This document shows positions 8,202 through 45,799 of a stretch of DNA of 64,000 nt, piece by piece. The notes beneath the pieces were generated by a model that saw only the letters and a list, made by a program, of their open reading frames with translations, was not told the DNA's origin and did not search any database. The stretch is from Sphyrna mokarran. Its lineage: Eukaryota. The first letter of the stretch is position 1. Every line of letters starts with the position of its first letter. A program made the position numbers and the translations under genes. The stretch covers positions 4,526,001-4,590,000 of the forward strand of contig JAGIQG010000027.1 in assembly GCA_024679065.1 (NCBI GenBank), in the 5' to 3' direction.

Positions 8202-8319
8202 AACTCAGTAAAGTTTTACAACACCAATTTTAAATCCAACCAATTTATTTGATAGTAAATCAGCGAGCTTTCGACTTTTCGTCTTCGTCAGGCAAATGCA
8301 GTGTTCTGGTCTCTACGTC
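8202..8319 (-). mobile_element. Penelope-like insertion (family A), one arm nearly absent
   Basis: TSD atggtg(g/a)gcat at 8191-8201 and 8320-8330; near-identical to 45551-45650. Confidence 0.85.
8263..8297 (-). ncRNA. Minimal hammerhead ribozyme motif
   Basis: Minus strand reads gcatttgc CTGACGA a GAC gaaaa GTC GAAA GC TC gc. Confidence 0.7.
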
Positions 8320-8554
8320 ATGGTGAGCATCCCAGTGAAATCAGTCTCAAGGTGAACACTTCCTGTCATGAGTCACTGGGTACGACAATTGAAGAAAGTC
8401 TGGCTGATTATTCCTTTCTCTAGCCCAGTGATTGTGAGTTCGCCCAGCTCAGAACCATTAACTTGACTCAATGTAGTCTGCAAGCCTTACTTGGGGCATT
8501 TGGCACAAAACCACCAGAAGCGGCTCCTTTGTGAACTGTTTATTTGCTTATATG

Positions 8555-8860
8555 ATAGGAAAGAAGAGGAGGTCATTCAGTCCTTTGAGAAAGTTCCACC
8601 ATTCAGTTAAATCATGGTTAATCTGTATTTTCACTCCACAAACCCACCTTCATTCTGCATCTTTTGGTGGCCTCTCCCTGTCTCCTCAGAGCAGCTCTCA
8701 GGGGGAGATGGTTCCAGTTTTCCACTATCTTTTGTACAAAGGAGTGCTTCCTGATATCATCTCTGACCAGCCAGGTTCTAATTTTAAGGTTTACTACCAG
8801 CCCCACACCCATCTCCCCACCATCTATCCCACCGACTCCTTAAACCAGCTCGAACACCCC
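8555..8860 (-). mobile_element. Old CR1 3' end
   Basis: ORF 8618..8812 LKIRTWLVRDDIRKHSFVQKIVENWNHLP is a CR1 ORF2 C-terminal motif. Confidence 0.75.
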
Positions 8861-10094
8861 AGTGGTATCAAATCATGTTTATTTGTCCTGGGAACTTTTA
8901 ACATATGTTCTTTTACCTCACCCATCAGTTGTGCTTTCCTGCATCACACACTTCACTCTCATAGCCAAGATGGTGGATGCACATCTTAAGCTTTACTGTT
9001 GTTGCTCTCAAGTAATGTTGGGTCATTTCTCTTCTCCTTGTGATGCCCCTCACATTCAAGTAGGTAAGCATTTGATGCCCTTCAGACAATAAAAGGGGAA
9101 AACATAGACAAAGGGGAAATCATCAAAGCACAACAACAATGTAACATAGCCAGTGAGAATGGATTGAGGAATCAAGTGGGGAAATGATTAAACTATTGAA
9201 TGGAGAAAGATTTCTTTGTGTGCGGGTGTCTGATACACCCCCGTGGCAGCCTACTCATCTAAAGAGCAGAGAGACTTTAAGTGTAAAGTTAACTGCCTGA
9301 ATTAAGCTATTTAACCCTCTGCGCTCTCTTGCCTTCTATCGTTACTGAGTTAATAGGTACATTTAAATGCAGCCGTCAGTGCTGTCAGGTTTTGATGCTG
9401 ATGTGTGTTGATGTAAATGGCGCTTCCTGGAATTTCATTATGGGATGATGTACCTGTTTGTCATCCTTACATTGCTGCATAGTTTTATGCCAGCTACACA
9501 AAATGCTGCTGATTTTCTAGCTGCTTTACCAAGTGGGATTTAATTAACCCTTTTGAGTGCTTACTCCCACAAAAGGGGGTTTCATTTCTTCTGAGTGTTC
9601 ACTCCTGACTTCTCTTGGAATTAAAATAACCGGCAAGCCCTCCAAACCTTCCACCACATGACTGTTTTTCGTGTTTTGTTGGGCAAGCTCTGAAGAACCA
9701 AACCAGGATGTTCCACCATTCATATCTTATGTTCACGTTTGCAGCAAGAGTAACAAGATAGCAATAAGTGATGGGAACTTTGATGGATTCTTAGTTACTC
9801 CCAAGGCCCATTTGTTTGTTGATCTGAGCAACTTCTGACCTTAACACAGGTAGTGAAAGGTTTCTTCTTTTTCAAATGAACTGACTTATAAATGACTTCA
9901 TCATCTTCAGTGGGTCTTTTCCTGATTAGAGAGTCCCATGTACGATTGGTGTAGACATCCAAGAGCCTGGCAGCTTACTGTTATTGGTGATATTTGGGGG
10001 GGGGGGATTTATGCAGTTGCACCACATCTGGTCTTCTTGGCATGTCTGATGTAGCAAGTTGAAACACTTAACACTATATAGCTGTCAGTCAACA

Positions 10095-10320
10095 CTCAGT
10101 GGATAGCACTGTTGTCCATAAGTCAGAAGGATGTAAGTCCAAGACTTATTACAGGAATTTGAGCACATAATCAGGCTGACATTCCAGTGCTACAGTAACA
10201 AAGTTGCTGTCTTTTATTTGAGATATTAAACCAAGGTCCCATCTGTGCTTTCCTATGGATATAAAATTTGTATATGCTATTTGAAGAAGAGTAGAGGGGG
10301 AGGATACTGTTATTCTTCTT
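10095..10320 (+). mobile_element. Deu-domain SINE, 5' part
   Basis: ctcagtggatagcactgttgtc..taagtcagaagg head; gagatattaaaccaaggtcccatctg core. Confidence 0.7.
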
Positions 10321-10371
10321 AAGACAAGGAAGGACTGGGTTAGCCCCCAGTTCATCTTAACTGACCCATCT

Positions 10372-11270
10372 TAAGGTTGCCAAAACTCCAGAATTGGTCA
10401 CCACATTTGAGGAAGGATATATTGGCCGTGGAGGGGGTGCAGAGAAGGTTCACTAGGCTGATACCGGACATGAGGGCGTTGGATTATGAGGAGAGACTGA
10501 ATAGGCTAGGTTTGTACTCTTTGGCATTTAGAAGGCTGAGAGGGGATCTTATAGAGACGTATAAGATAATGAAGGGGATGGATAGGGTAGAGGCTGAGAG
10601 ACTCTTCCTGCTTAGCAAAGGTAGCAGGACTAGAGGGCACAGCCTCAAGATTAGGGGGGAGGGGAGCAGTTTGGATCGGAGTTGAGGAGGAATTTCTTCA
10701 CTCAAAGAGTGGTGAATCTTTGGAATTCTCTATCTGTTGAAGTGGTGGCGACTTCCTCACTGAATATGTTTAAGTCGAGTGGATAGGTTTTTGATTGACG
10801 AGGGAATTAAGGGTTATGGAGAGAAAGCGGGAAAGTGGAACTGAACCACTGCAGATCAGCCATGATCTTATTGAATGGGGGGCAGGCTCGAGGGGCTGGA
10901 TGGCCGACTCCTGCTCCTAATTCTTATGTTCTTATGTCCTTGAGACTCCTGGAATTGAAGATTTAATTTCCAGGCTAAAGCTGTAAGTAATCCCAGAGAA
11001 ATATCACATGGAAGGGACGGCATTCAAAAATTTTGGATTTTGTTTTACATTTTCTTTGCGCATTTTTGTTTTTTAATCAAAAAAGGATATTGGCAACAAG
11101 AAACATGGTTGTCTGAATGACAGTCAAGGAACCTGTTCATCTTCTGATTGGCTGTGGGAAGGTGAACATCTCGGGCAACCAATATTGGGAGTGTGAGGCG
11201 GGACAGTTAGACACAGGAAGTCGTGTGACAAAACCTCCAGGAAAATGTCCATCCAAAGTTGGTGTCCCAA
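10372..11270. mobile_element. hAT (Blackjack-like) MITE split by a CR1 insertion
   Basis: Ends taaggttgccaa...gttggtgtcccaa resemble a degenerate TAGGGTTGCCAAC terminal inverted repeat (TIR); host sequence ccagaattg|tccttgagactcc resumes after the CR1. Confidence 0.6.
10394..10936 (+). mobile_element. CR1 LINE 3' fragment
   Basis: ORF 10377..10685 WSPHLRKDILAVEGVQRRFTRLIP..RLRGDLIETYKIMKG; tail ttcttatgttcttatg. Confidence 0.95.
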
Positions 11271-12098
11271 CATGTGAGAAATTTGGAATTGATCCCTAAA
11301 ATCAGTGACCTTCATGACCATTACAGTTGAGCCAACTCTGCCCTCATCGCATAATCAATACAGTTGTGGGAGTCTCTGATTCATAATACGGCTTGTGAAT
11401 CCTTCTTGATTTTCCTGTTCCTTTGTGGGAGAGGTTTTATTGTCCTAAATCAGCATTACTTTAATTTTGGCATTAAGCTGATATTTTGAAGTGTGTCCTC
11501 ATTTAGATCATCCACAGATCATCCAGATTTAACTGGCTCAGTTCCAAACCAGGCAGGCACAGCACAGCTGTTACTGAAACATTGGAGCAGAGTTGGGTGG
11601 GGAGCCGGGGAGGGGGGAATGCAGTTATAACAGATTCCTTGCCTGTGCTGAGCACACATTTACAGCAGGCTAGATCAACATGATTTGAATGACTGAACAC
11701 TGTTTGAAAAAGTGAACATTTCTCCAAGGCTCCAAAAACAAAAGACGGCATCAAACTTTCCAGGGTGAAAAAGTTACCAATCACAAAGGAATAAGATGCT
11801 GACAAAAGGTTTTACTTCTGGCTGTGAGGCGCTTGTTGGTTCAGAATCCTTCACTGCGTAAAAAAAACCCTGTCGAATTTCCTCTTTCCAGAGTAACCCC
11901 AGTGTACATGTTGTGTTGCTCAGTGGGAAATAACAATTCAAAAGAATGTAAACTCACCATCAGCATATGGAAGAACGCGGGGGGATGTGTTACATCTCTC
12001 GAGCTGTCTGTAGACTGCCTGGGCTTCTGCTTTCCCAGGGGGTTGCTTTGTGAGAAAACACAAGTTGTAAGCAGAGGAGGTGGTGGTGGTGGTATTGC

Positions 12099-12126
<28 letters not shown>
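12099..12126 (+). repeat. (TG)14 microsatellite, preceded by (GGT)5
   Basis: Read directly from the sequence. Confidence 0.95.
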
Positions 12127-12130
<4 letters not shown>

Positions 12131-12927
12131 TGGGAGGGTGGGGAGGGAAGAGGTATTGGTTGGGGGGGGGGTAGTGCTGCTGAGGCAGCAGGGTGGCAGG
12201 ATTAAAAACAGGAGCAGAAACGATATGGACAACAACATGTCTTGGGCCTAATCAGCCTGCCATCACCATGAGCCCTGTTTCTGCTCATCAGTAGCGCATC
12301 AGTCTGTCACCTCTGACAGGTTGGCCAGGGGCTTCTTTTCAAGTCAGCATCAATTCTCTTAATGCAACTAAAACGATTGATTGAGAGTCAGGATTTTCAG
12401 GCTTCAATTTCCTTGTATTCAGAAAGTCAACTCACTGCTTTCAGCCTTCAGAGGATTGTGTTAAACTCAAAATGCTCTTTCTAACAACAAAAATGTACTT
12501 TTGTAAAACCTCAGGTCTTCTGCAATAAATTGTTACAAATGTGATACAATGTAATCCACTCAGTGCATCAGAGAATCATTCTCCAAAGTGTCACTCATGA
12601 AGCTCTTGATTTTCCAATCAGCATTTTTTTCAAATTTTTTTAATGAGATTCACACCAGGCTTAAAGTCACATTAATCATAAAAATCAAATCAAAGTATTT
12701 CAATGAATTGTTAGAAACTTTTGAGATGGTTATTATTACTGTTTTTAGAATTTGGAAATGTTGCTTTTCTCTGCATTTCAGCCTCTCCCTCTGTTTTGAA
12801 TCTGAATCTCATCCCTTTTTCATTGACAGGGAATGATCTTGTCAATGGCTTCTCCTAGTCCACCCTGCAAGCTTGAGTTAAAATTCAAAGGCCTCCGGCC
12901 TTTCAGTGAGCTGATTGTCCACATGCA

Positions 12928-13332
12928 TGATATAGAGATGATGGTGTTGGACTGAGGTAAACACTGTAGGAAATCTCACAACACCAGAGTAGAGTCCAAC
13001 CAGTTTATTTGATGGTAATCTCACAAGCTTTCGGAAACAGTATTCCTTCGTCAGATGCGTGGAAGGTTCTGATCAGAGAAGGGCATATAAAATCACACAC
13101 AGCTTACAGAATACTGATTAGAATGCAAGTCTTTACAGCTAACCTGCTATTCAAGCTGTAAAGACTTGCATTCTAATCAGTATTCTGTAAACTGTGTGTG
13201 ACTTTATATGCCCTTCTCTGATCAGAACTTTCCACACACCTGACAACAGAACACCATTTCCGAAAGCTTGTGAGATTACTATCAAATAAACTGGTTGGAC
13301 TCTACCCTGGTGTTGTGAGACTTCTTACTGTT
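12928..13332 (-). mobile_element. Penelope-like fold-back insertion (family A), ~180-bp arms
   Basis: TSD tccacatgca at 12918-12927 and 13333-13342; arms ~12959-13140 and 13154-13332; 13-nt spacer. Confidence 0.9.
13022..13057 (-). ncRNA. Minimal hammerhead ribozyme motif, intact core
   Basis: Minus strand reads cat CTGACGA a GGAA tactgt TTCC GAAA GC TT gtg; the plus-strand mirror at 13240-13272 has a mutated core (CTGACAA). Confidence 0.75.
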
Positions 13333-13639
13333 TCCACATGCAAGCAGGATATTTGGCCCAATTAGTCTATTCTGCCATTTACTTCCTTATTGACAAAAAG
13401 CCCTGATCACATTTACACATCATTTTCCTCTGCCTAGTTTGTACTTGTGTGGTCTTTTAGAGGAATCACACAATGTCAGCTGAGACATGGCCACGTGTAG
13501 CTTTGGATTGACACAGGTAATTTTGTTGCTGGTATTTTCATTTTTCCAAGGGTATTTATAGAGTGTTATTATGTTATTATGTTGTATTATGTTGTAGATA
13601 AATCCCAGTTTAATCTATTGATCCTTTCCAGAACGTCCC

Positions 13640-14330
13640 TAAATCTTATTTTCCATCTTCCATCTATCCAAACTAATCTTGCATGTTAATGGAAGCGAAT
13701 TCCATTGAATCACTGTTGTCTGTCATCCTTTCCATGTAAATCTATTGCCCCTTGTTTTGGACCTCACAGCTCCTGGGAGCAACTCCTTTCTAGCTTGCCA
13801 TATACTTTTATTATTTTAGATACTACTTTCTGAATTATTATAAGAAAAAGCCCATATTCTCCAAGACTTTTGCTGTTTTCTTTTATTTTACAAGGCAACA
13901 TTCTAGCAAAACAATGTTGTACCCTTGGTAAAATCTCTATCCTTCCATAATGCAAAAGCCCGTTGTTGCAGTGTTCCATCTGAGATTTTATATAGGGTCA
14001 ATATTACTTCCTGTTTTCATATGCCGTACTTGTGTTAGAACCTAATATGGAATTAGCTTTTTATTCACAGTCTTTAATATCCTGTGGATCTCTGTTTCCG
14101 ACCCTCCACACTCCACCGCCCCACTCCAACCGCTCTCTCCCACCCCTTCACATACACACATACACGCACTCTCCCCGCTCTGTTCCAGTGCTGAACCCAT
14201 CTTCAATCACTGATTCATTACTGTTAGAGTTTTTTAAACCATAGTGCATCATCTTACACTGAGTTCCATCTGCCACATTTTATCCCATTTGACTCTCTCA
14301 TCAATTCTGCATTGATAATTTGGATTGTAC
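13640..14330 (-). mobile_element. Ancient, heavily decayed CR1 fragment
   Basis: tgtacccttggtaaaatctctatcctt, aaaccatagtgcatcatcttacact..gagttccatctgccaca resemble reverse-strand CR1 RT C-terminal sequence. Confidence 0.45.
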
Positions 14331-14394
14331 ACACTCCCTTTGTAACAGGGATTTCACTGTCTAGTGGAATATTGAGCATCCAAATTAAGAGTAG

Positions 14395-14630
14395 GCCATA
14401 CAAGCTCCTTGTTTCGTCCCTGTTTTATGCTGAGTTGGATCATTTTAATTGTTGTCAGTGCTGTGTCTCAGGGAGAATTCTCATCTGAGACCCACAAGGG
14501 AAGCATGTTTGAATGTAAAAACAAGGTAGCGTTTTGATCAGGTTTGAGTGTGCTGTTTGCTTCTATAGTTTAGTCCTATCAATGCTCACCACCCAGGCTT
14601 AGATACAGAGAATAGGACCAAATTTTAACC
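14395..14630 (+). mobile_element. Ancient SINE 'family C' (possibly Nin/MER131-like; name unverified)
   Basis: ccctgttttatgctgagttggatc...gaataggcca-like motifs recur at 17025, 48190 and 50290, and reversed at 8150, 23340, 35280, 42700 and 43820. Confidence 0.45.
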
Positions 14631-15761
14631 CATTCATGGTGCACTATGTCCACTGGGGTAAATGTGCATCAATGGAATTACACAACAAGGAAAGTCTCAG
14701 TACCATCAGCAGAGGAGAAAGAATCTTACGTTCACTGTGTTCACCATCACACAGACACACAGAATGTAGAGCTATTGTGAGGAATTGCAGCAGATCACAT
14801 CTGCAGCTGCTATTAGGTTTTGCAGTTGTTGTTTCATTAACAAACTCTGCATTTAACCTGAGGACCAGGCAGCGATATTTTCTTTTATAAAAAAAATTCT
14901 CTCCCATGCAAGTGCTGTGATTTCTTTCTCATTCAGTCTTTAGGGTTCATGAACTCCTTCCAGCTAGATATACAATGGGGCTTGCTCTTGAGACGTGGCT
15001 TTAGAGAAGGAACTGAAATGGGTTCCCCATCATCAATAACCTGAGCTCTGACAGTGCTGAAGGCATCACAAAGTGGGCCCTGCCTTGGACCTGTCACTCG
15101 GATTCAGCGACAATGCTCTTGCTTGCAGGACCCCAGTGAGTGTTGTACTCTGAGGGTGTGTGGGGAGGCAGGGAAAGGGATGCTAGTCGGGGTAAAGAAT
15201 GAAGAAGAGAAAAGAAAAAAATGCACAGTTTTCTTCCAATATTTGGTGATGTGCAGCTGCCTCTTAAATAAATGAACTCACAGCTTTACCTTCAGGCAAT
15301 GTGCCTCTCAACTAATAATAAAGTGTGATCAGTTTGTGTTGACAGCAGTGGCTGTCTGGAGCTGATATGGGGAACTGGAAAGGTGGATAATAACAAACTT
15401 TGTTTAGATTTTACAAAGTGCCTCTTGGATAATGCAGAGCTAACGCATTCCAATTAGCATTTTGGAATCATGCTTCTCTCACTGATTCCTCTCAATTATA
15501 CACTTTTATTTGGTATCTGTTCTTGAAATATGCTAAGCAAGGATACTAAATCAATCAGGATTTCATATGTAGAAACTCAGGTGCCTCTTGAGTTGGAAGG
15601 TTCTGTTCTCAAGTCACATTTTAGGAAGCAATTGCAACCGGTTTATATACGGGCTGGTGGTCATTGGAGATGTACATTGGGAGAGATATGGAAAGTCTAT
15701 ACACTTAATCTAGATTTGCACTCCAATGCAGCACAGATTGAATGTGACATTGCCAAGATCC

Positions 15762-16676
15762 AGGGCGCATTTTCCCAAAAGATTTCTAACTGTTATTCCC
15801 AGCAGAAAAAGTGCTGAGAATCCCACTGCGAGTGTCAGTATGATTCATTCTGCAATTCAACCTTACTTAGAAATGTTTTTGGAGCCTGGGGAGATTCTCA
15901 GTGGCTCCTCCCATACAGGATTTTGATTGAATTCTCCCACACTTAGGGACCAGAATTCTCTGGCCATTCACACTAGTGAGATTCTCTGGTCCTGCTGCTG
16001 GCACAACCTGGCAGTGTGGGAACTTCCATTGATAGCAGTGGGATCAGAAAATCTCATCACCAGTGATCGATATGTGCTGTCAATAGCGTAACGCTGTGGA
16101 AAGGCCAGAAAATCTCACCCAAAATTCTCTTTAGAGCAGGGACCTAAAAATGCCAGTGAGGTAATTTTTAAAGGGCCAAAAGAGAAAATGCCAGTGCTGG
16201 ACACTACCCAGCCATTTTGCCAGCTACCTGGGGGCTTCAATGATCTCAAAGCCTCCCTGGTGTGGCATCACGACTACTTTCTGTTTTTGGAAACCAATAG
16301 CGATTGGCGAGAGGATTCCACTGCCCCCAGGGTTGGAGAATCCCAGATTCCTGCTTCAAACTGATACAGCAGCTGGAATTCTCCAGTCTCTCATACCCCA
16401 TCGCCACTGCCAGCAAGAATGGCGAATATGACACAGCCAAACCTCCATCCACAGCAGCAGAACTGGGGAATCCCAGCTGCCGGCAAGGTCAGAGAATTCC
16501 GGCTGACACATTTATTTGAGATTTAAATATGCTAATCTGGTTCATGCCCTTGCTAGATGGACATCAGATTATGTTGGGGTGGTTGGGAGGAGAATCCCAA
16601 AGGGAATTCTCACTGCCCTGTGCAGCCCCGTGTGATCTGCGTATGAGGGAATGGAGAGGGCGGAGAATCATCCCCA
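15762..16676. mobile_element. GGG-terminal (PIF/Harbinger-like) non-autonomous DNA element, with a nested short MITE at ~15947-16120
   Basis: Ends agggcgcattttccc...ggagaatcatcccc; internal gagaatccc/gggattctc motifs; related to 45168-46540. Confidence 0.65.
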
Positions 16677-16679
16677 CCA

Positions 16680-16980: not shown

Positions 16981-17024
16981 AAAGTCTCTCCATTCTGATT
17001 TGTCCCTAGCCAAGTTCTACCCAG

Positions 17025-20828: not shown

Positions 20829-22042
20829 GACTGAAATTCTCCCCTCCTATCCATTGCATGTTTGGTAGTGGGCAGAAGCAGAAAATCTAGCAGGAGTCAA
20901 ACAGTCAGAAGCCTGCCAACATCATGTTGTAATTTTCCCAATGGCGAGTCAGTGTTCCTGAAGGTCGATGGCATGGACGCCATTTGCATTCATTGGTATC
21001 TCATGAATCTCATTAAAATAGCTGGCCACCAGCATTCCGTTAGGCCCTCCAATCCTGCATCTTGTCAGCATGATATTACATTGCTCTAAAACCCGATTAT
21101 TAAGAATGGAGTGCACATAGTGGTTCTCAGTTTGCAAGTGGTGAGTGCAACAAAGCCTTTCTGCCCCTGTGCCACACTGCTCCTGATGCCCTGTTCGCCA
21201 CTCTGCCAGGGCAGACCAATTCTTAATTGCTCTGGAGAAGATGGTAGAGAGCTGCTTTCTTGAGGAGCTGCAGTTCTTGAGATGTAGGAACAACCACAGT
21301 CCTGTCATGGAGGGATTTCTAGGATTTTGACCCAGTAACAGTGAAGCAATCGCGATGTATTTTCAGGTCAGGATGGTGTATGACTTGGAGGGGAACCTCC
21401 ACGTGATGACATTCTCATGTGTCTACTGTTCTTGTTCTTCTAGATGGTACTGGTCATAGTTTCGAAAGGAGCTGCCAAAGGAACCTTGGTGAGTTCCTGC
21501 TGTGCATTTTGAAGATGTGGCTGAAGAAGATAAACAATTGAAGGCTGAGGGAAGTCTGAAGGGAGGGAAGTTGGATCCTGATAATGCTGCATGAAAAGAT
21601 TCCAATCGGGGAGAAGGGGGGGGCATCAAAAGGATACCATATTATTTAATGGAAGGAGATAGATGAAGATTCCAGAGGCAGTGGATAGAGGTCCACTTGG
21701 GGCTGATGGGCTCAGTGGGGGAAAAGGTAGTTGAATTGAAGAACAAGTCGTTTCTTGAGCTGTTTCTCTCTAGGTGGCTGACATTCTGCACAGCCTGGTG
21801 AAGATAGCTGGGCTGGAGATAGTGATGTGGGTGTGCTGGACTGGTGTTTAGATATGACCTTCCAACCCACCAACTGATGTTTGGTGGACAAAGCAGTTGG
21901 CAGCCTGCCAGGGGATTTGGAGGGGAACTTGCCTGGGCAAAATTAATGAGGTTTTAGGTACAGAATTTGGTGCGGAATCATTCTGGCCAGCAGGAAAGGC
22001 ACTGCCAGAGCTCCCGCTACTGCATAAATGGAGAATTCTGCC
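20829..22042. mobile_element. Harbinger-like MITE remnant containing a reverse CR1-group LINE fragment (21240-21510)
   Basis: Ends agactgaaattctccc...ggagaattctgcct; internal segment matches the 850-1130 LINE. Confidence 0.5.
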
Positions 22043-22905: not shown

Positions 22906-22909
22906 ACCA

Positions 22910-23587: not shown

Positions 23588-23940
23588 GCAATGACCTAGT
23601 GGTATTATTGCTGGACTGTTAATCCAGGAACTCAGCTAATGTTCTGGGGACCCAGTTTGAATCCTGCCAGGGCAGATGGTGAAATTTGAATTCAATTAAA
23701 AAAATTATCCAAATTAAGAATCTACTGATGACCCTGAAGCCATTGTCGATTGTCAGAAAAACCCATCTGATTCACTAATGCCCTATAGGGAAAAAAATCT
23801 ACTGTCCTTACCTGGTTTGGTGACGTGTGACTCCAGAGCCACAACAATGTGGTGGATTCTCACTACCCTCAGGCAACTAGGGATGGACAATAAATGCTGG
23901 CCAGCCAGTGACACCCATATCCCACGAATGAGTAGAAAAA
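23588..23940 (+). mobile_element. SINE family D, full length
   Basis: tagtggtattattgctggac..gtttgaatcc (A/B boxes); tail ggacaataaatgctggccagccagtgacacccatatccc. Confidence 0.85.
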
Positions 23941-24102
23941 AGAACCTAGGTTCAATTCTGGCCTTGGTTGACTGCCTATATGGAGTTTGCATGTTGTCCC
24001 CATGTCTGTGTGGGTTTCCTCCAGGTACTCCGGTTTCCTCAAAGGATTACATTTGACCATGCTAAATTACCCTTAGTGTCAGGGGCATTAGCAGAATAGA
24101 TA

Positions 24103-32170: not shown

Positions 32171-32530
32171 TAAAGATTTTCCCTGATTCAGGAAGAAGGC
32201 TCACCCCAATATGCGCAGAGTAAAAGTGACTAGCAATAAATGCCAGCTCCTCCACCCATATCCCATGTCATGGTGCAAACCACATTTATTGATAAAATTG
32301 CTTTGCACTATAAATATTTCCATTCAGTAATCTGCGCTTTATTCAACATCATGAAATTTCACAGGTCTATTGATCTTGTCACTGGTTCTGCAGGCACTTT
32401 CTTCTTTGGTCATCATCCTGAAACTGTGCGTAGTTACAGGATGCCAAATATCAACTTCAACTTAGAATCATAGAATCCCTACAGTGCAGAAGGAGGCCAT
32501 TTAGTCAATCGAGCCTGCACCAACTCTCTC

Positions 32531-32738
32531 ATGACATGGAGATGCCGGCATTGGACTGGGGTAAACACAGTAAGATGTCTGACAACACCAGGTTGAAGTC
32601 CAACTGCTTTATTTGATAGTAAACTGAGACCAGAACATCTCATTCATCTGACGAAGAGGGGAACCTTGAAAGCTTGTGAGTTTATTATCAAATACATTGG
32701 TTGGACTTAAACCTGGTGTTGTCAGACTTCTTACTGTG
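32531..32738. mobile_element. Penelope-like fold-back insertion (family A)
   Basis: TSD ccaactctctc at 32520-32530 and 32739-32749; inverted arms. Confidence 0.9.
32642..32681 (+). ncRNA. Minimal hammerhead ribozyme motif, intact core
   Basis: attcat CTGACGA a GAGG ggaa CCTT GAAA GC TT gtgagt, with a 6-bp stem I. Confidence 0.75.
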
Positions 32739-33099
32739 CCAACTCTCTCCCCCAGGCCAAAGCCCCTTAACCCCATGTATTTACCCAGCTAATTCCCCCT
32801 AAGCCAGACATCTTGGGACAACAAAAGGGAATTAAGCATTGCCAATCAAACTACCTGCACATCGTTGGATTGTGGGAGGAAACGCACACAGATACGGGAA
32901 GAACATTCAAATTCACACAGTTACCTAAGGCTGGGTCCCTGGCACTGTAAGGCAGCTGTGCTAACCATTGTATCACCATGCCATCCCATTCTTGACCTGA
33001 CCATTGGATTATAATTCTAGCAGTGAAACCACTTCCTTATTACTCTGGGGACAGACAGTCCTGGAACTCCAATTGATTAAACTGGCAGACCATGTTGTT

Positions 33100-33420
33100 T
33101 CATAGAATTCTACAGTACTGAAGAAGACCATTTGGTCCATTGAGTCTGTACTGATCACAATCCCACCCAGTCCCAATTCTCGCAATCACATGCATGTACC
33201 ATGCTAATCTCCCTGACACTAAGGGGTAATTTTGTATGCCCAATCAACTTAACCTGCACATCTTTGGACTGTGGGAGGAAACCGGAGCACCTGGCAGAAA
33301 CCCACGCAGACATCGGGAGAACATGCAAATGCCACACAGACAGTGGTCTGAGGCCGGAATTGAACCTGGGATCCTGGCGCTGTGAGGCAGCAGTGCTAAC
33401 CACTGTGCCACTGTGCTGCC
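33100..33420 (-). mobile_element. HE1 V-SINE, full length
   Basis: Head, V domain and tail all recognisable. Confidence 0.9.
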
Positions 33421-33906: not shown

Positions 33907-35144
33907 ACAAAGAACAAAGAACAAAGAACAACACAGCACCGGAAACAGGCCCTTCGGCCCAACGAGCCCACGCTGCCGTCCTAACGTCTTAATGACATAT
34001 AGGGACCAATTTGTCACCCAATCAGCCTAAGAGCACATTTTTGGGATGTGGGAGGAAACCGGAGCACCCGGAGAAAACCCACGCAACCGCGGGGAGAACG
34101 CGCAAACTCCCGCAGACACAGGCCCAAATCCATGTGTCTGCACAGCAACAGCGATAGTCCCTGAGCTGTCATGGTGCCCATCAGATGGTCCAGTTTAAGC
34201 ATACACTAACGACGTGAAGCACTAGGCCACTCCTGAAGCAACATCCAAGAGCAGCTCTCACACGACCTGCCGCATGCATGCACCTTGTTGGTTAACAAGG
34301 TGGACTGAACATCCTGTGGAAACAAATAGGATATTTAAACAGTCCTACTATATCCCTCTATCTGCAGACCGCTCATGTGGCTGTCCAAGAGACCCTTAAA
34401 CAACCCCAGCGTGCCTGCTCCCACCACCTTACTCGGTAGTGCATTCCACACCCCCACTACCCTTTGTGTGAAAAACTGCCCTCTAATATTCGTCTTATAC
34501 ATAGCCCCCCTCACCCTAAGGCCGTGACCCCTCGTTCTATCCTTTTCTAATGGTGGAAAAAGCTTACCACCATTTACTCTATCTATACCCCTCATAATCT
34601 TATATATCTCTAATAGATCCCCTCTCAGCCGACGTCTTTCAAGGGAAAACAACCCCAGTGCGTTCAATCTTTCCTCGTAAGACAGCCTTCCATACCAGGC
34701 AGCATCCTGGTAAATCTCCTCTGCACTCTCTCCAGGGCCTCCACATCCTTCCGGTAGTACGGCGACCAGAACTGGACGCAGTACTCCAAGTGAGGCCTAA
34801 CCAACGTTCTATACACTTGCAACATTAGACTCCTACTCTTGTATTCTATACCTCTTCCTATGAAGGCTAACATACCATACGCTTTCTTTATCACATTCTC
34901 CACCTGTACTGACATCTTTAGAGACTTGTGAACCTGCACCCCCAGGTCTCTCTGCATCTCTATACTCCGGATAGTTTTACCTTTTATCCTATAACTCCCC
35001 GCTACATTTTTCCGGCCAAAATGCATCACCTCGCATTTATTCGGATTAAATTTGATTTGCCATCTATCTGCCCAATCTACCAGCCTATCTATGTCCTGTT
35101 GTATTGCCTGGTACTGGTCCTCTGTTCCTGCCAATCCAAGCATT
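33907..35144 (-). mobile_element. Young CR1 LINE, 5'-truncated, with a V-SINE-derived 3'UTR
   Basis: ORFs 34664..35143 and 34335..34667 are ORF2 C-terminus with one frameshift (KFNPNKCEVMHFGR, RPHLEYCVQFWSP, RRLRGDLLE); possible TSD tatgat at 33901-33906 and 35145-35150; tail (ttctttg)n. Confidence 0.93.
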
Positions 35145-37707: not shown

Positions 37708-37882
37708 ATAATAAAACAGAATGTGCTGGACAAACTCTTCTTGAGTTCCAAAAAAGAGTCACATTGAACTTAAAACATTAGCTCTGTTTCTCTTTCCACA
37801 GATGTTGCCAGATGTGCTGAGTGTTTGCAGACTTTCTATTGATATTTAAGAACTTAGCATCCACCATTAATTGTTTTTATTA
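37708..37882. mobile_element. Family B palindrome nested in a reverse Deu SINE (37590-38090)
   Basis: aataaaacagaatgtgctgga...ccacagatgttgccagatgtgctgagtgtttgcag. Confidence 0.6.
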
Positions 37883-38356
37883 ACCTGTTCTATTCATATT
37901 GAGTAAGGGATAAAAGTTTGCAGGAACAGGAAAACATTCTCTTGATAATGATCAATTAATCTGTTTTAATGATGTTGATTGAAGATTAAATATTGGCTAG
38001 GAAACGAGGGAGAGCATCCTTGCTCTCCTTCAAATAGTCCATGGCATCATTTGCATCCATGTGAATGGGCATATTCATTTTAAAACAATTTTAGCATGGT
38101 ATAATTTTCAAGACACTTCATATAAGTGCGATCAGACATTAGATAGACACAGTCAGTGATACAGAAGAGGTGGGCAAAAGTTTGTCAAAGGCTGAGGTTT
38201 TAACAATAGTGTCACTGAATCTTTTATATCACCCAAGAAGGCAGACAGGTAATGGTTTAATATCTTATCCAAGAAACAATACTTCTGACAAAATAGAAAC
38301 TGCGTTGTCAGCTCAAGTTTTTGGAGTGGGGCTTGAGTCCACTGGCTTCTACCTCA

Positions 38357-38559
38357 CATAATAAGAAATCTCACAACACCAGGTTAGAGTCCAACCAGTT
38401 TATTTGATAGTAATCCTGAACAGGTTCCACACACCTGACAAAGGAACACTTTCTGAAAGCTTGTGAGATTACTACCAAATAAACTGGTTGGACTTAAACT
38501 TGGTGTTGTGAGACTTCTTATTGTGTTTACCCCAGTCCAATGCAAACATCTCTACATCA
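38357..38559 (+). mobile_element. Penelope-like fold-back insertion (family A), hammerhead core mutated
   Basis: TSD ttctacctca at 38347-38356 and 38560-38569; cac CTGACAA a ggaa cact ttct GAAA GC TT gtg at 38432-38465. Confidence 0.9.
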
Positions 38560-38824
38560 TTCTACCTCAGATATCAGAGAGCCATCTTTGGGTTAAGTCT
38601 GAATAGGCAATGTGATATAGTGAGCACAATCCTACACTGCTGATTTCCCAAGTTTGGCTATTTTTCCGACTGGAAACAGCTGGGAACAGGAAAAAAAACT
38701 GGACAAAGTATGAGCAATCGTCATAATTAAACTTTCCAAAAAACAGACAATAGGAAAGGAATGTTTTCCCTTTTGACATACCAGCTCCTTACACTGACAA
38801 ATATAACATCTCTCCCAACGAGAA

Positions 38825-39003
38825 GCGGGTACACTTTTAAAAAGCATTCAGACAGTTACATGAATACAATGGGTATAGAGGTATATGGGCCAAATGTGGG
38901 CAATTGGGATTCGCCTAGGTGTTTAAAAAAAAAGGGTGGCATGGATAAATTGGGCCCAAGGGCCTGTTTCCGTGCTGTAATCATCTATGACTCTATGACT
39001 CAA
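38825..39003 (+). mobile_element. CR1 3' end
   Basis: gggcccaagggcctgtttccgtgctgta..(ctatgact)n tail. Confidence 0.8.
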
Positions 39004-39299
39004 TGACACATCATGCTGAACTTCACACTGAAATTACATAGGGAGTCAAGCATGGGAGCAGCCCAATCTTTATTTCCCAATAAGGAAGTACAAATTCCAG
39101 ATAACCATTAAGAGCCATTTATTTTTTATTCTTGATGAAGGAATGGCTCCATTTCAGATAATATCTCTTATCTTACATCTGAATCTCATCCATTCCCTTC
39201 TTCTTTTAATAAATTTTCTGGGTTGATAAGTGAATATAAGAGTTTGGCTATGATCCCATTCATGGTCGAATTGTCAGACTTGAGAAATGGTCAAGTATC

Positions 39300-39712
39300 A
39301 GCTATGGCTCCATAAGTCAAGGGTTTGGTGTTCAAGTCCTTGGTATATAATCTAGGATGTTGATTCAGAGCAATTATGAGGAAGTGCTGCATTGTTGAAG
39401 ATGCCATTTTTCAGGAGAAATGTTAAACAGAGGCCTGATCTGCCCACTCAGGTGGCTGCAAGCTATCCTATGAACTATTTGAGGAAAACCAGGGAAATTC
39501 TCTCTAGGGTCCTAGGCAATGTTTAACCTTCAACTGACATCATTAAAACACATTATTTAGTCATTATTAAGTTGTTGTTTGCAGAGCTTGCTGTACACAA
39601 ATTGGCTGTTGCATTTTCTACATTACAACTTTGAAGGCATTTAAGGTTCATTTCAGCAGCTGTAAAGCACTTTGAATCACCCTGAGGTTGTGACAGGGAC
39701 TGTTGAAATGCT
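39300..39712 (+). mobile_element. Deu-domain SINE
   Basis: gaggaagtgctgcattgttgaagatgcc..tgttaaacagaggcc..aaattggctgttgcattttctacattacaac. Confidence 0.8.
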
Positions 39713-40590
39713 GAAAATTTCAGCAGGTCTGACAGCATCTGTGGAGAGAGAATGGGACTAATAGTTAGAGTTAGGAAGTTAGCTTGAAAAGTTGGCTCTA
39801 TTCTCTCTCCACAGATAGTGAAGAATGAAGAGGGATCTTAGTGTATATGTTGCCTGAAAGTTGGCAATCAAGTCGATAAGGTTGTTAAGAAGGCATACGA
39901 AGTCTTAGCTTTTATTGGTAGGGGGATTGAATTTTGGAGCCGCAACGTCATGTTGCAACTGTACAAAACTCTAGTGCGGCCGCACTTGGAGTATTGTGTG
40001 CAGTTCTGGTCCCCACATTATAAGAAAGATGTGGAGGCAGTGGAGAGGGTACAGAGGAGGTTTACCAGGATGTTGCCTGGTATGGAGGGCAGGTCTTATG
40101 AGGAGAGGCTGAGGGATTTGAGGTTGTTTTCGTTAGAAAGAAGGCGGATAAGAGGAGACCTTATTGAAACATATAAGATGATTAGAGGTTTAGATAGGGT
40201 GGACAGTGATAGCCTTTTTCCTAGGATGGAGAAAGCTAGCACGAGGGGATATAGCTTTAAATTAAGGGGTGGTGGTTTTAGGACAGATGTCAGAGGTAGG
40301 TTCTTTACCCAGAGGGTGGTAAGGGTATGGAATGCCCTACCTGCTGCAGTTGTAGATGCGCCAAGTTTGGTGGCTTTTAAGAAGTTAGTAGATAAGTTTA
40401 TGGACGAAAAGGGAATGGTTTAGGTTAGAGGGTCATTGCTTTTTCTTAATTGGTCAGCGCAACATCGAAGGCCGAAGGGCCTGTTCTGCGCTGTAATGTT
40501 CTATGTTCTATGTTTCAGAACTGCTAAGATTTTCCAGCATTTTCTGTTTTTGTTTCTGATTCCAGCATCCGCAGTATTTTGCCTTTATAT
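39705..40590. mobile_element. Family B palindrome split by a CR1 insertion
   Basis: Right arm ctctctccacagat| (39816) resumes as tcagaactgctaagattttccagcattttctg (40515). Confidence 0.7.
39821..40514 (+). mobile_element. Young CR1 LINE 3' fragment
   Basis: Open ORF 39950..40423 LYKTLVRPHLEYCVQFWSP..WNALP; tail (tgttcta)n. Confidence 0.95.
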
Positions 40591-40665
40591 TGCTATGTAA
40601 ATGCTACTTCATTCTTGCTTCTTGTGGAGTTTCATTAGTCAGTGGAATCAAGATCAAGAGAAGAG

Positions 40666-40868
40666 CCATAGAATCCTTATAGTTCAGAAAGAGGCCATTT
40701 GGCCCATCAAGTCTGCACCAACTATCCAAAAGAACATCAAACCCAGGCCCCACCAACTCCACCCCCCCGCCCTATCCCTGTAACCCCACATATTTAACAT
40801 CGCTAAACTACCTAAACTATACATCTTTGGAAACTAAGAGGCAACTTAGCACAGCCAGTCCACCTAAG
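40666..40868 (-). mobile_element. HE1 SINE, 3' part
   Basis: catagaatcc..gaggccatttggcccatcaagtctgcacc..ccctatccctgtaacccc. Confidence 0.7.
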
Positions 40869-41119
40869 CAATGGAAAGAGGAAATTGGAAAGAATTCAAA
40901 TATGGTTGAGGCGTGAAAGCATATCTATTAAATAAGGTGTGTCTTGGAATGAAACTGCTTCCAGCATTCCTGCAGGGAAGGCACTGAATACAATCCTCAG
41001 CTACTTTTCCTTAAAAGTTTTTGCAGCCAAAAGATATGGATCATTTTTGGCAGCTTAAGCTACTAACCAATTCAAAGTGCTCTTAACTTCCTGAGCACCA
41101 ATGAAGTAATTGTGATCAT

Positions 41120-41607
41120 GTTAAAGTCCCACTCTAGAGACTTGAGCACAAAACGTAGGCTGATAATCCCAGTGCCATACTGAGGGAGGGCTGCACTGTC
41201 AAATATGCTGGCCAAAATTCTCCGCTCATTCACAGCTCTCCACCACTGCCAGTGAAGATGGAGAATTTGGCACTCAGCTATTCACTGCAGAAGGACTCAA
41301 GAATCCCAATTGTGGGCAAGATCAGAGAATCTGGCCCACTGTCTTTCAGAGGAGATGTTAAAGCTTGCTCCGTCTGCCCTCATGGATGTACGCCAAACTC
41401 CCAGGACATTATGTCAGAGGAGATTAGGGAAATCTCAACTAACATTTATCTTAACCAACATAAATTATCTGGTCATTATTGTATTGCAGTTTGTGGGAAC
41501 TTGCTATTCATAAATTATCTGTTGCACTTCTTACATTACAACTATGACTACACTTCAAAAGTACTTTGGGACATCCTGAAGTCATAAATGGTATGAGATA
41601 AATGCTG
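41120..41607 (+). mobile_element. Deu-domain SINE with a nested short MITE (41209-41317)
   Basis: Deu core split at gctgcactgtcaaatatgc|...|tgtctttcagaggagatgttaaa; MITE TIR ggccaaaattctc/gagaatctggcc. Confidence 0.75.
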
Positions 41608-41745
41608 TAGCTATTTGGCAATGACAAGCATCACAGCCAATAAAAACAACAGTAACTTTTTGCAAAGCATTTTAAGAAATCCTGATTGTTATGAGGCAAT
41701 ACATAATTGCAATATCTTTCTTTCAGTCATTGCTTCTTCATGCAA
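41608..41745 (+). repeat. Direct repeat, copy 1 (138 bp)
   Basis: Matches 42765-42901 with 5 substitutions and 1 indel. Confidence 0.95.
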
Positions 41746-42764
41746 TGGTTTTTTACCATTACAGCCCCGAATATTTTGCCTCAATTTCTCAGCCAATTTT
41801 GAGTTGGCTGCTGAATGTCCTTGTGCTGTGCCACTGAAAATACTTGCTTATGGAATGGTATGACAGCAGCTCCTATGCTCACTGCATCACAGTTTTGTGG
41901 ATGCTTCACTACTTAACATCCTTGCCAATGTCTCAATTCAAAAGCTGAAAATGAACATCTATTATAATGTCAGATAACCTTATCACTGAGGAAGAAAATC
42001 CATTTGTTTTTAAGTTTGAGCGAGAGTTAATGGCAGGAACAATCTGAAGCATATGTGTACGCCAATATTAAGATTTTCCGTCACAAAAAAAAGTTTGTTC
42101 ATCTTTTTCTTTCCTTTGCCTCCATTCTCCGGCTCTCATGATTGTATTGGCTTTAAGAGTAAATTTCTGCCAAGGTAGTATATCACATAATTTCACATAA
42201 TGTACAATAATGTTGAGTGTCAATTGACTCACATCTCCTCACTGGAACTGACAAGTCGAACATTTTGAAGAAAAATTGCTCAATTCATGGAGAACATTCT
42301 TCGAAATAACTTACCTGCACACTGTGACCAGATGACCCAGAAATTAGTCCAGAGATAAATTACACTTAAGTGGAGTGATATGCACATCCCCTCTTCAAGC
42401 TATCGTTAGCTCACTCAGCACCCTTAAGTGTTCTCACACTCTTGATCCATGCAAGGCCCTCAGGTTCATGTGGATTAGAATCTCATCACAACTCTTCAGA
42501 TCATGCCATCAGCTGAGTTGTGCCTTGATAAAATTGCGAGGAAGACAATCAAATACAGTAACATCTAGGGTGACCTGTAGCATACATTCTGCCATGCCTT
42601 TTGAATGACATCTTGTAATTATGCTTTTCTAAATCCCAACTCTGCTAATCCTTTCTTTAGTTGAAGGCACTGCCTCTTGCAGGAATTCAGTTTCATGATC
42701 AGTTTTCTGATAAGTTTGCCTGGATTGTCTGTGTACCTTTGTGAGCTCAAACAATGAGGATAAA

Positions 42765-42901
42765 TAGCTATTTGGCAATGACAAGCATCACAGCCAATAA
42801 AACAACACTAACTTTTTGTAAAGCATTTTAAGAAATCCTGATTGTTATGAGGCATTATATAATTGCAATATCTTTCTTTCAGTCATTGCTTTTTCATGCA
42901 A
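42765..42901 (+). repeat. Direct repeat, copy 2 (137 bp)
   Basis: Matches 41608-41745. Confidence 0.95.
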
Positions 42902-43103
42902 GTATCAGTTCTGCTGACACTGGGCAAGAATGCAAGATACTGACATTGTCTTAGATTAACCTGATGGGTAGCAGGAGTATCGTGTGCAGATAATCAATAT
43001 GGACTTGATGCCTAAGTAGTGACGCAGAAGCTGTGCTGCCAATCAGGGGTGGCTTTTTTCTTTGTTTATACTAACAACAGATGAAGATGCTTCAACCACG
43101 TCC

Positions 43104-43558
43104 CAGAGGACTGTATACTAATTAAGCCTCTTGTATCTTCCATTTCAGGGTTATAAAAAAACAATTGGTTGTAGAATTCTAGATTCTTTTATGTTGTCCA
43201 GGCATCATTTAAAGAGCAGTACTGGCTTAATTCTCTCCTGTCTTCCCTAATTATGTTGACTCTCACAAAAGCACAGTTCCACAAGCTCCAGGAACCTTAG
43301 CTCTGTCAGAATTACCACTCGTCATTTCCAGGTTTGGCTAATCATTACCAATGGGATATTAAACATGGAGGCATCACAAGTAATTCCAATTCTGTTCTTG
43401 TACAGTTATCATCCAGTGAAATGATTGGATAATGTTTTATTCCTCCCTTTCCCAACTGCGAGACTGTACGAGATAATTCTATCCTCAATTGAGATCATTT
43501 CCCTGATTCAATTCTTTTGCAGAGGACTGTATACTAATTAAGCCTCTTGTATCTTCCA
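43104..43558 (+). repeat. Perfect 39-bp direct repeat pair (43104-43142 and 43520-43558)
   Basis: cagaggactgtatactaattaagcctcttgtatcttcca occurs twice. Confidence 0.95.
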
Positions 43559-43980
43559 AAAAAATGAATCTGGGATAAGTTTTCTGTTTAGTTGAATTAG
43601 TAGTACATTATTTAGTCTCTTTATTCATTGAAGCAGTTAATGTTTATAACCAAAGTGTCACTTTCCCATTAAATAAAGTAGATTTCTGGGCCTGTGTAAT
43701 AGTAAACATTATTTGCCCTGAGATCAAATTTATTTTATTTTTTGCCTCAATTTCCTTGCCTATTTTCTAGAATGCACTGATTCTTGCTGGAATGCAGTTC
43801 CACAGTTGCCTTTAGTCGAGTCCTCGCATTTACATGTGAGCTTAGACAGTAAACATTAGCAAGCTGTTCAGCAATGGTGTGCATCATATCTGAACTTAAT
43901 TCAGACATCAGCAATAACTGATATGGGAGCTGAAAAATAAGCCGTTTTATCCATTATCCACAAATGTGGAGGCTAATTCC

Positions 43981-44745
43981 TGCACTATGGCAGGAATAAT
44001 AAATGTGTAGAGTATAGGGCTAATGGTAGGATTCTTAGTAGTCTTGATGAACAGAGGGACCTTGGTGTGTATGTGCATAGATCCCTGAAAGTAGGCAGTC
44101 AAGTCGAGAAGGTTGTTAAGAAGGCATATGGAGTCTTAGCTTTTATTGGTAGGGGGATTGAATTTCGGAGCCGCAACGTCATGTTGCAACTGTACAAAAC
44201 TCTAGTGCGGCCGCACTTGGAGTATTGTGTGCAGTTCTGGTCCCCACATTATAAGAAAGATGTGGAGGCATTGGAGAGGGTACAGAGGAGGTTTACCAGG
44301 ATGTTGCCTGGTATGGAGGGCAGGTCTTATGAAGAGAGGCTGAGGGATTTGAGGTTGTTTTCGTTAGAAAGGAGGCGGCTAAGAGGGGACCTTATCGAAA
44401 CATATAAGATGATTAGAGGTTTAGATAGGGTGGACAGTGATAGCCTTTTTCCTAGGATGGAAAAAGCTAGCACGAGGGGACACAGCTTTAAATTAAGGGG
44501 TGATAGTTATAGGACGGATATCAGAGGTAGGTTCTTTACCCAAAGGGTGGTTCGGGAGTGGAATGCCCTGCCTGCAGCAGTTGTAGATGCGCCAAGTTTG
44601 GTGGCGTTTAAGAGGTTAGTTGATAAGTATATGGAAGAGAAGGGAATGGTTTAGTTTGGAGGGGCATTGCTTTTTATATTGGTCGGCGCAACATCGAAGG
44701 CCGAAGGGCCTGTTCTGTGCTGTAATGTTCTATGATCTATGTTCT
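43981..44745 (+). mobile_element. Young CR1 LINE 3' fragment
   Basis: Frame is open from 43983 (HYGRNNKCVEY..QRDLGV) to the stop at 44654; same subfamily as 39821-40514. Confidence 0.95.
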
Positions 44746-45552
44746 TAATTGAATCTCATCTAACAAACCTCAACATTGAGTGTGTCACTCAATACACATC
44801 AAGAATTGAAGCTGTGACTTGTCTGGCATTTATGGTTCAGTTCCTCATTTACCAACTAATCAATACAGGGAGAAGATGCACAAATGAGGTGCAGGAGTCA
44901 GCCCTTGAGCCGGATCAGCCCTGCCATTCAATAAGATCATGCCTGGTCCGATTGTGGCCTCAGCTCACATTCTGCCTGACCCCAATACTTTCTTGTTAAT
45001 CTCTTGTTAATCAAGAATCTATCTAACTCTGCCTTAAAAATATTCAATGACCCTATCTTCACCACTGTCAGGGGAAGAGAGATTCATGAGCCTCTTCTCA
45101 TCTTAAATGAGAGACCCTTTATTTTTAAACTATGTTCCTTTGTTCTATCTCCCACATGGAGAAACATTGGCAGTGATTTTCCCACCCCGAAGCGTTAATT
45201 TTTTTGGTGCTTCAGCCCGGGAGAATCGCGTGTTGGCCTCTTTGTGAGATGTGTTCCTGACGAGTGCGCAGCTCCGAGCACCAGATATCCAGAATGGTCG
45301 GGATCATGCTGGAAACTGGCGGGAACAGCAGGTAAGTTGTTTTGATCTGTTTTTAACATAAATTAAATGCCATTATCGGGCCTGGGACTGAAGTCTCTGA
45401 GCCTGCTAGCATCTCCCACCACCCCATCAGTGCAACTTCACTTTGGCAGGATTCAGACTAGCGGGAGACCCCCACTGGAGTGAAGGGGGAGCAATTGGGG
45501 CCCTCCCATGGAATTAGGTGGTGAGGGTGGTCTCCCTGGGCATGGACACCCT

Positions 45553-45799
45553 CAGTAAAGTTTTACAATACCAATTTTAAATCCAACCAATTTATTTGAT
45601 AGTAAATTCGCGAGCTTTCGACTCTATAGCCTTCGTCAGGCAAATGCAGGCTATATAAATGCAGGCTATAGATGCAGGCTGACGAAGGCTATAGAGTCGA
45701 AAGCTCGCGAATTTACTATCAAATAAATTGGTTGGATTTAAAATTGGTGTTGTAAAACTTTACTGAGTTTACCCCAGTCCAACACCGGCATCTCTACAT
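45553..45799 (+). mobile_element. Penelope-like fold-back insertion (family A), very young
   Basis: TSD catggacacc(c/t)t at 45541-45552 and 45800-45811; 89-bp arms (45551-45639 and 45679-45767) with 1 mismatch; 32-nt tail. Confidence 0.92.
45606..45645 (-). ncRNA. Minimal hammerhead ribozyme motif, intact
   Basis: atttgc CTGACGA a GGCT atag AGTC GAAA GC TC gcgaat; the mirror core is on the + strand at 45679-45712. Confidence 0.8.

Follow-up and report, generated by a model that had tools for sequence, protein, structure and literature searches.

In the available sections of the published accounts, insertions of Penelope-like elements (PLEs) carry an inverted, 5′-truncated copy with a 30–40 bp tail at one end (PMC8557442), or inverted pLTRs with a 31-bp tail and a target-site duplication (TSD) of 8–10 bp (PMC3846280). 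The PLE enzyme nicks and extends both target strands, and the tail is as long as the distance separating two sites at which reverse transcription starts in vitro, as far as the accessible part of that study describes it (PMC11167929). Minimal hammerhead motifs of metazoan PLEs (min-HHR) have already been noted, in the available portion of one report, as pairs on opposite strands 100–700 bp apart (PMC4209133); PLE hammerheads are reported, as a review sums it up, to cleave as dimers (PMC5785218), and two papers, in the sections at hand, treat the in vivo function of the PLE hammerhead as unsettled (PMC8557442, PMC11167929).

Here we describe five related inserts of 118–405 bp in a 64-kb window (the whole stretch of DNA that was analysed), which are most probably independent, severely 5′-truncated pLTR insertions of several related PLE subfamilies, each from one two-sided reverse-transcription event. 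As such, they are an ordinary but clean instance of a known retroelement footprint. They share with EN+ PLEs (Penelope/Poseidon, Neptune and Nematis; PMC8557442, PMC3846280, PMC8969392), as the available parts of these sources describe them, head-to-head arms, a short TSD, 5′ truncation, a one-sided tail (32–34 nt here) and a hammerhead in the terminal repeat, but differ in the extreme shortness of both arms and in retaining no ORF. Poseidon_Ac (PAc) of Anolis, in the accessible part of its description (PMC11167929), has two start sites flanking the tail and both strands nicked and extended, as proposed for the inserts, and likewise a hammerhead upstream of the start sites. The distance from cut to first start is 61–63 nt here, in contrast to ~85–92 nt computed from the PAc coordinates; the TSDs here are not AT-rich; and the same source reports PAc priming as non-homologous, whereas the inserts have an apparent overlap of 1–4 nt at the tail end. 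With min-HHR, as set out in the available text (PMC4209133), the inserts have in common a conserved core, an extra base before helix II, G10.1–C11.1 (or G–U after decay), a palindromic AGCU with no helix III, and covariation between families, although helix II, 7–8 bp long in the Schistosoma motifs, is 3–4 bp in the inserts. Animal non-LTR retrozymes (PMC7229834; bioRxiv 10.64898/2026.07.22.740005) are, in the accounts available, ORF-less, hammerhead-bearing and PLE pLTR-related like the inserts, but form tandem arrays, whereas the inserts are single head-to-head units bounded by TSDs; searches of the window yielded no retrozyme-type tandem head-to-tail repeats, all five copies being single. 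In literature searches that left Repbase/Dfam and most subscription journals outside, we found no paper on such short copies in this animal group and none on arm ends at a ribozyme cut, and three short element motifs were absent from the searchable literature.

Inserts and target-site duplications

A profile HMM built from the five inserts recovered nine arms at E ≤ 1e-18 (next match at E 0.31), and neither this search nor a second one found a sixth insert, giving a density of 5 per 64 kb, or 1.8% of bases. The limits between TSDs are 8202–8319, 12928–13332, 32531–32738, 38357–38559 and 45551–45799; four of these agree with the first-pass annotation, which had placed the start of copy 5 at 45553. 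Their parts are as follows.

8191–8201, + strand: left TSD of copy 1, 11 bp, one mismatch to the right copy
8202–8313, − strand: tail-less arm of copy 1, 32 nt short of the terminus; core 8291→8265; inner end 22 nt upstream of CUGA
8310–8320, + strand: terminus remnant of copy 1, 11 nt; 4 nt common to the inverted arm, final base common to the TSD
8320–8330, + strand: right TSD of copy 1
12918–12927, + strand: left TSD of copy 2, 10 bp; contigs of three other runs follow the left flank and cease to match exactly at 12927
12928–13142, − strand: tail-bearing arm of copy 2, 215 nt; intact core 13054→13025
13143–13153, no strand: junction filler of copy 2, 11 nt, differing from the element consensus; contig loose ends at 13142
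13154–13332, + strand: tail-less arm of copy 2, 179 nt; decayed core 13240–13269; the two arms 91% complementary to each other
13333–13342, + strand: right TSD of copy 2
32520–32530, + strand: left TSD of copy 3, 11 bp, in a SINE-like repeat
32531–32625, − strand: short tail-bearing arm of copy 3; inner end 3 nt downstream of the predicted hammerhead cut
32626–32738, + strand: long tail-less arm of copy 3; intact core 32648–32675; inner end 22 nt upstream of CUGA
32739–32749, + strand: right TSD of copy 3
38347–38356, + strand: left TSD of copy 4, 10 bp
38357–38415, − strand: short tail-less arm of copy 4; inner end 4 nt downstream of the predicted cut
38416–38559, + strand: long tail-bearing arm of copy 4; mutated core (CUGACAA) 38435–38462; inner end 19 nt upstream of CUGA
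38560–38569, + strand: right TSD of copy 4
45541–45550, + strand: left TSD of copy 5, 10 bp
45551–45649, − strand: tail-less arm of copy 5; complete minimal hammerhead (helix I 6 bp, helix II 4 bp), core 45639→45612
45650–45678, no strand: junction filler of copy 5, 29 nt, a patchwork of 4–8 nt pieces that occur in the two arm ends
45679–45801, + strand: tail-bearing arm of copy 5, CUGA to terminus, last 2 nt common to the TSD; the arms complementary over 88/89 nt
45800–45809, + strand: right TSD of copy 5

All five inserts thus have their own TSD, as had been claimed, with lengths of 11 (one mismatch), 10, 11, 10 and 10 bp in copies 1–5. Four copies score 10–11 and copy 1 scores 8; the same search on 400 random intervals reached a score of at least 10 in two and at least 8 in six. 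Two sites speak for true insertions: the copy 3 site is crossed by a paralogous repeat without the insert (5951→5770), and contigs from three other runs lose their match exactly at the copy 2 TSD. The fold-back architecture ascribed to all copies at first pass, with two inverted arms, is present in four. Copy 1 has no inverted arm pair; it is a single inverted arm that meets the final 11 nt of the terminus at a common TCTC, its predicted fold is weak (−12/−19 kcal/mol) and it is missing from the inverted-repeat list.

Fixed outer ends and variable junctions

The inverted arm had been described as stopping ~30–35 nt before the ACATCA terminus, and this offset is 34 nt in copies 2–5 and 32 nt in copy 1, always leaving a tail on one side only. 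Outer ends at 0 and at −34 (four of five copies) or −32 point to two reverse-transcription start sites. The inner junctions, by contrast, differ in 5/5 copies, with one 4-nt overlap and two fillers among them. Opposite-strand joints in contigs of four public runs are equally diverse (8/8 unique, one contig each, depth 2–27), in a low-sensitivity table of eight strand-switch joints among 33,810 contigs for which the reference was one subfamily only. None of the window's own junctions was clearly recovered there, and one contig joint with the inner end of copy 2 may be an allele of that copy. The stereotypy of the family is confined to the outer ends and absent at the junctions. Copies 3 and 4, which belong to different subfamilies and carry their tails on opposite arms, are alike in where their junctions lie relative to the predicted cut (−50/+3 and −47/+4). 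This likeness is more order than random truncation would give.

We propose that the element's GIY-YIG endonuclease would nick both strands 10–11 bp apart, the spacing seen in the TSDs, after which cDNA synthesis would begin from one nick at the terminal site and from the other 32–34 nt inward; this step agrees with the fixed positions of both outer ends and with a tail on one side only. Both cDNAs presumably stop after about 10–215 nt and are then joined head to head by end joining, as the unique junctions, the 4-nt overlap and the two fillers suggest. The hammerhead would be a passenger of the pLTR, and its versions in the fold-backs carry mutations, lack parts or are predicted to lie buried within the hairpin. 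The resulting stubs are predicted to have been unable to move from the outset.

The parent element

None of the 149 open frames of at least 70 aa in the window gave a PLE RT or GIY-YIG domain in Pfam searches (run on 10 frames, then on 149), and a PDB search of one window frame was empty. With no PLE ORF in the window, architecture and motif make the case for PLE parentage. The Pfam matches were all sub-threshold, including a weak RVT_1 in a LINE-like piece. The family continues upstream past 13142 with a common consensus in 4/4 runs (78–133 contigs each), which indicates that the source elements are longer than any stub; a contig depth step near the tail was left out of account, as alignments there are trimmed by mismatches that only copy 2 carries. 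In one run, 10,812 contigs fit one arm at ≥80%. In four scans for the motif, contigs from metagenomes, viruses and prokaryotes gave no matches, and five motif matches in a further contig scan, aligned only over about the length of the pattern, were dropped as chance.

The hammerhead motif

A minimal type I hammerhead, with CUGANGA and GAAA boxes and UH, occurs in seven of the nine arms, with its predicted cut 95–97 nt from the terminus; copies 3 and 4 lack it in their short arms. The CUGACGA core attributed to every copy is intact in five of the seven motif-bearing arms, G8 having changed to A (CUGACAA) in copy 4 and in one arm of copy 2, the tail-less one. In copy 5, the tail-bearing arm starts at CUGA, without the native 5′ strand of helix I. 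A palindromic AGCU stands in place of helix III in 7/7 arms, and all five stem II pairings listed at first pass (GAC/GTC, GGAA/TTCC, GAGG/CCTT, GGAA/TTCT, GGCT/AGTC) are correct.

Helices I and II covary, with 5/10 pairs changed on both sides, 85% of 60 cells paired and 11 cells changed on both sides, in a sample of six related rows from which the structure itself was read. The covariation score was 0.71, against 0.07–0.29 in slid controls, and was reached in 0/500 shuffles. Because the helices covary between subfamilies, selection probably maintained the hammerhead in the parent elements. Comparison with Rfam, also proposed at first pass, found no hammerhead family among nine matches up to E 5. 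The only models matched were generic miRNA hairpins, and the matches, to mir-607 and MIR841 among them, were below threshold and arise because the inserts form long hairpins. Folded as monomers, the seven hammerhead regions were not more stable than shuffles (z −0.85 to +0.72), as expected in motifs that have no helix III; the hammerhead-like fold lay 0.7–1.7 kcal/mol above the minimum in three folded cases. In copies 2 and 5 the core is predicted to be 83–100% paired inside the hairpin.

Alternative origins

Given the same PLE origin, the fold-backs could instead stem from one strand that snaps back and primes itself, perhaps with an antisense template, the unstable palindrome centre later being deleted asymmetrically. 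Self-priming has been proposed for head-to-head PLE palindromes in the available part of one report (PMC3846280), copy 2 is nearly symmetric, the arms within one copy carry common subfamily letters, and the contig joint mentioned above could be an allele of copy 2 that has lost its centre. We nevertheless think this route quite unlikely. The tail-less arm is the longer one in copies 1 and 3 and the tail-bearing arm in copy 4, so that a single cDNA folding back is insufficient without later deletion, which would be needed in three of the five copies; moreover copy 5, which is the youngest and has a single difference over 89 nt, is already unequal-armed, with its patchwork filler in place.

The first-pass annotation had offered two readings, stereotyped abortive PLE insertions or a non-autonomous, ORF-less ribozyme/hairpin retro-MITE family copied as a unit. 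The former, with inverted pLTR, tail and minimal hammerhead, is supported by layout, tail, TSDs and motif. High density, the abundance of arm-matching contigs, fixed outer ends and the similar geometry of copies 3 and 4 would suit the latter, and non-autonomous PLE derivatives have been reported (PMC8557442; bioRxiv 10.64898/2026.07.22.740005, in the sections available), yet we hold it to be very unlikely. Unique inversion junctions had themselves been named as the mark of copies that do not amplify independently, and no two are alike among the window and contig joints; size is not uniform, copies 3 and 4 come from different subfamilies with tails on opposite arms, and the core is predicted to be largely paired in the hairpins of copies 2 and 5. 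That the inserts are DNA-transposon MITEs or foldback elements with terminal inverted repeats and an incidental hammerhead is exceedingly improbable despite their long inverted arms and TSDs, as the ends are asymmetric by the tail, the TSD is 10 or 11 bp rather than fixed, copy 1 has no inverted pair, the hammerhead helices covary, and the uniform size, common junction and symmetric TIRs of MITEs are lacking.

Arm ends and possible ribozyme cleavage

If the inserts are truncated PLE insertions, their stubs might further record in vivo hammerhead cleavage, one cDNA running off the 5′ end of the ribozyme 3′ product while its partner copies RNA that has not been cleaved, up to a favoured 5′ end ~20 nt upstream of the core; we regard this as unlikely. 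In copies 3 and 4 the short arm breaks off 3 nt and 4 nt, respectively, from where cleavage is predicted, and the long arms of copies 1, 3 and 4 end 22, 22 and 19 nt upstream of the core. Simulation gave P 0.03 for at least two events ending 0–5 nt 3′ of the cut and P 0.02 for three long-arm ends within 4 nt, both criteria having been chosen after seeing the data. None of the eight contig joints ended near the predicted cut, and two (−44, −46) lay near the long-arm ends. If the reading is true, arm-end counts over genomic copies would reveal whether and when PLE ribozymes act in retrotransposition. Such short, abundant, TSD-bounded copies hold both initiation sites and the junction in <400 bp and so lend themselves to statistical study of two-site priming and of what the PLE hammerhead does. 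The fold-backs, if read through, would also supply double-stranded RNA.

Five short inserts and the anatomy of their arms

The five related stretches proposed in the first-pass annotation are all present in the sequence; they total 1,183 bp (1.8% of the window) and comprise nine arms, with no further match in the window by BLAST or by an HMM built from the copies. Their limits agree with those first drawn for copies 1–4, while copy 5 begins at 45551. Direct repeats surround every insert as described, although these target-site duplications (TSDs) measure 10–11 bp rather than 10–12 (among 400 random intervals, 2 scored at least 10 and 6 at least 8). The inverted-arm architecture ascribed to all five holds for four, whose inverted arms span 178, 60, 60 and 89 nt at 88–99% complementarity, but not for copy 1, where, in place of an inverted pair, a shared TCTC links a 112-nt inverted arm to the final 11 nt of the terminus.

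Read in the orientation of the hammerhead strand, all arms represent the 3′ end of a single sequence type, made up of a hammerhead, a conserved core of ~60 nt and a terminal 34 nt. Tail-bearing arms reach the terminus ...ACATCA, and tail-less arms stop 34 nt short of it in copies 2–5 and 32 nt short in copy 1, within the shortfall of ~30–35 nt originally noted. Unlike these outer ends, the inner ends differ among arms:

Inserts (window coordinates) and inner ends of their arms, counted from the predicted hammerhead cleavage site (minus, upstream)
Copy 1, 8202–8319: −49 and about +86
Copy 2, 12928–13332: −118/−116
Copy 3, 32531–32738: −50/+3
Copy 4, 38357–38559: −47/+4
Copy 5, 45551–45799: −38/−28

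No two of the five junctions are alike: one is an overlap of 4 nt, one holds a filler of 11 nt, two look like direct joins, and one carries 29 nt patched together from pieces of the arm ends. The copies fall into at least three subfamilies (copies 1 and 5; copies 2 and 4; copy 3). At the tail side, element and TSD apparently overlap by 1–4 nt in all five copies (8320, 12927, 32530, 38560, 45800), a count which assumes that the element goes on with TG, the reading suggested by the contig consensus; at the tail-less side the overlap is 0–1 nt. The tail-side overlap may reflect template–primer pairing or a target preference, which would look identical. Two overlapping 6-mers of the copy 2 filler (13143–13153) recur within 30 nt of the right TSD, possibly by chance.

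Origin of the inserts

The inserts are real, and are most likely an ordinary footprint of the type left by Penelope-like elements (PLEs). Published PLE insertions often carry an inverted 5′-truncated copy and a 30–40 bp tail at one end (PMC8557442, PMC3846280, PMC8969392). A study of an Anolis PLE protein describes nicking and extension of both target strands, and two start sites for reverse transcription with the tail between them; there the hammerhead was dispensable in vitro and RNA ends at the cut were not found (PMC11167929). The simplest account of our copies is that reverse transcription would have been primed twice, with a different strand and a different start site each time, that both reactions would have aborted early, and that end joining would then have linked the products. 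The copies themselves show the fixed outer ends, the varying inner ends, the fillers and the TSDs; that nicking, priming and joining took part in making the copies is what we infer. No parent PLE ORF was found in the window, and it is therefore by their architecture and motif that the inserts are assigned, putatively, to the PLEs. Repeat databases may already list the family.

Inverted arms might instead arise from a single cDNA folding back on itself, which we consider less economical because the tail lies on the longer arm in copy 4, yet not in copies 1 and 3. The suggestion that the inserts amplify as units, as a retro-MITE, predicted shared junctions, and none occurred among the 13 examined.

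The hammerhead motif and nearby arm ends

Seven arms carry the motif CUGANGA-N-helix II-GAAAGCU-H. Its core is intact in five, and the other two (one in copy 4, one in the tail-less arm of copy 2) have A for G8. Having the palindrome AGCU in place of helix III, the motifs fit the minimal PLE hammerheads, which PMC4209133 describes as probable dimers of low activity. The proposed Rfam check detected none of them. Across six arms, 85% of 60 cells in helices I and II are paired and 11 are changed on both sides; covariation is 0.71, against 0.07–0.29 with slid partners, and this value is reached in 0 of 500 shuffles; the count of double-change pairs taken alone is unexceptional (118 of 500). This supports helices I and II, short of proof, because the six rows are related to one another and also supplied the structure being tested. 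The loose-end consensus of the commonest contig subfamily has an additional helix II version, GGAG/CTCC. Predicted folds of whole copies pair 83–100% of the core in copies 2 and 5, and place it in the hairpin loop in copy 3.

In copies 3 and 4 the short arm stops just past the predicted cut, 3 and 4 nt downstream respectively (32625, 38415), so that the ribozyme motif falls within the long hairpin's loop. Arm ends near the cut are the remaining lead, one drawn post hoc from two copies (P about 0.03). Among eight opposite-strand joints in contigs of public runs, none has an arm end in the 5 nt just 3′ of the cut, and two have long ends at −44 and −46. Although copies 1, 3 and 4 belong to three subfamilies, their long arms start at similar points, 22, 22 and 19 nt 5′ of CUGA (8313, 32626, 38416). 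Every arm reaching that region has a conserved CAG 11–14 nt upstream of the core, preceded in copy 2 by a pyrimidine run; that it is a 3′ splice site is speculation. Both arms of copy 2 also have a TATA-like run (13085–13092, 13202–13209) ~37 nt upstream of the core, a possible promoter of the PLE terminal repeat.

The family in public contigs

Contigs of four public runs were aligned to the copy 2 tail arm with 128 nt of flank at a likeness of at least 80%. Respectively 10,812, 4,970, 9,354 and 8,674 fit, and the family is therefore abundant, contig counts being different from copy number. In all four runs, 78–133 contigs diverge from the reference at 13142 and agree on one consensus from there on; hence members of the family exceed the five stubs in length. 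The eight joints are all different, each in one contig at depth 2–27, in a table of low sensitivity that favours unequal arms (differing by 35–85 nt). One joint in run X1 (13095→13140; window 12800–13150) shares copy 2's inner end, its depth being roughly half that of the contig of the locus itself, and may be a copy 2 allele partly missing its palindrome centre. In three runs a contig matches the left flank of copy 2 at ~95% up to exactly the last TSD base and then runs on for 41–51 non-fitting letters, which hints at an empty site.

Genomic surroundings

The window around the inserts is animal genome, that of a shark, with many LINE- and SINE-like pieces; no host gene was identified in it. 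A paralogous SINE-like repeat (5951→5770) spans the copy 3 site without the insert. Other features are:

5043–5317, 5637–5959, 23588–24093, 32464–32900, 33100–33420, 55552–55873: short interspersed repeats in several copies, one of which contains copy 3
20952–21362 (−): open frame in which a repeated stretch gives a below-threshold Folate_rec match (E 0.004), with no PDB support
34335–35143 (−), 39842–40514 (+), 43977–44743 (+): three related LINE-like 3′ fragments

These LINE-like fragments, which we take to be CR1-type, have open frames of 150–225 aa, and one gives a weak RVT_1 match (E 0.025).
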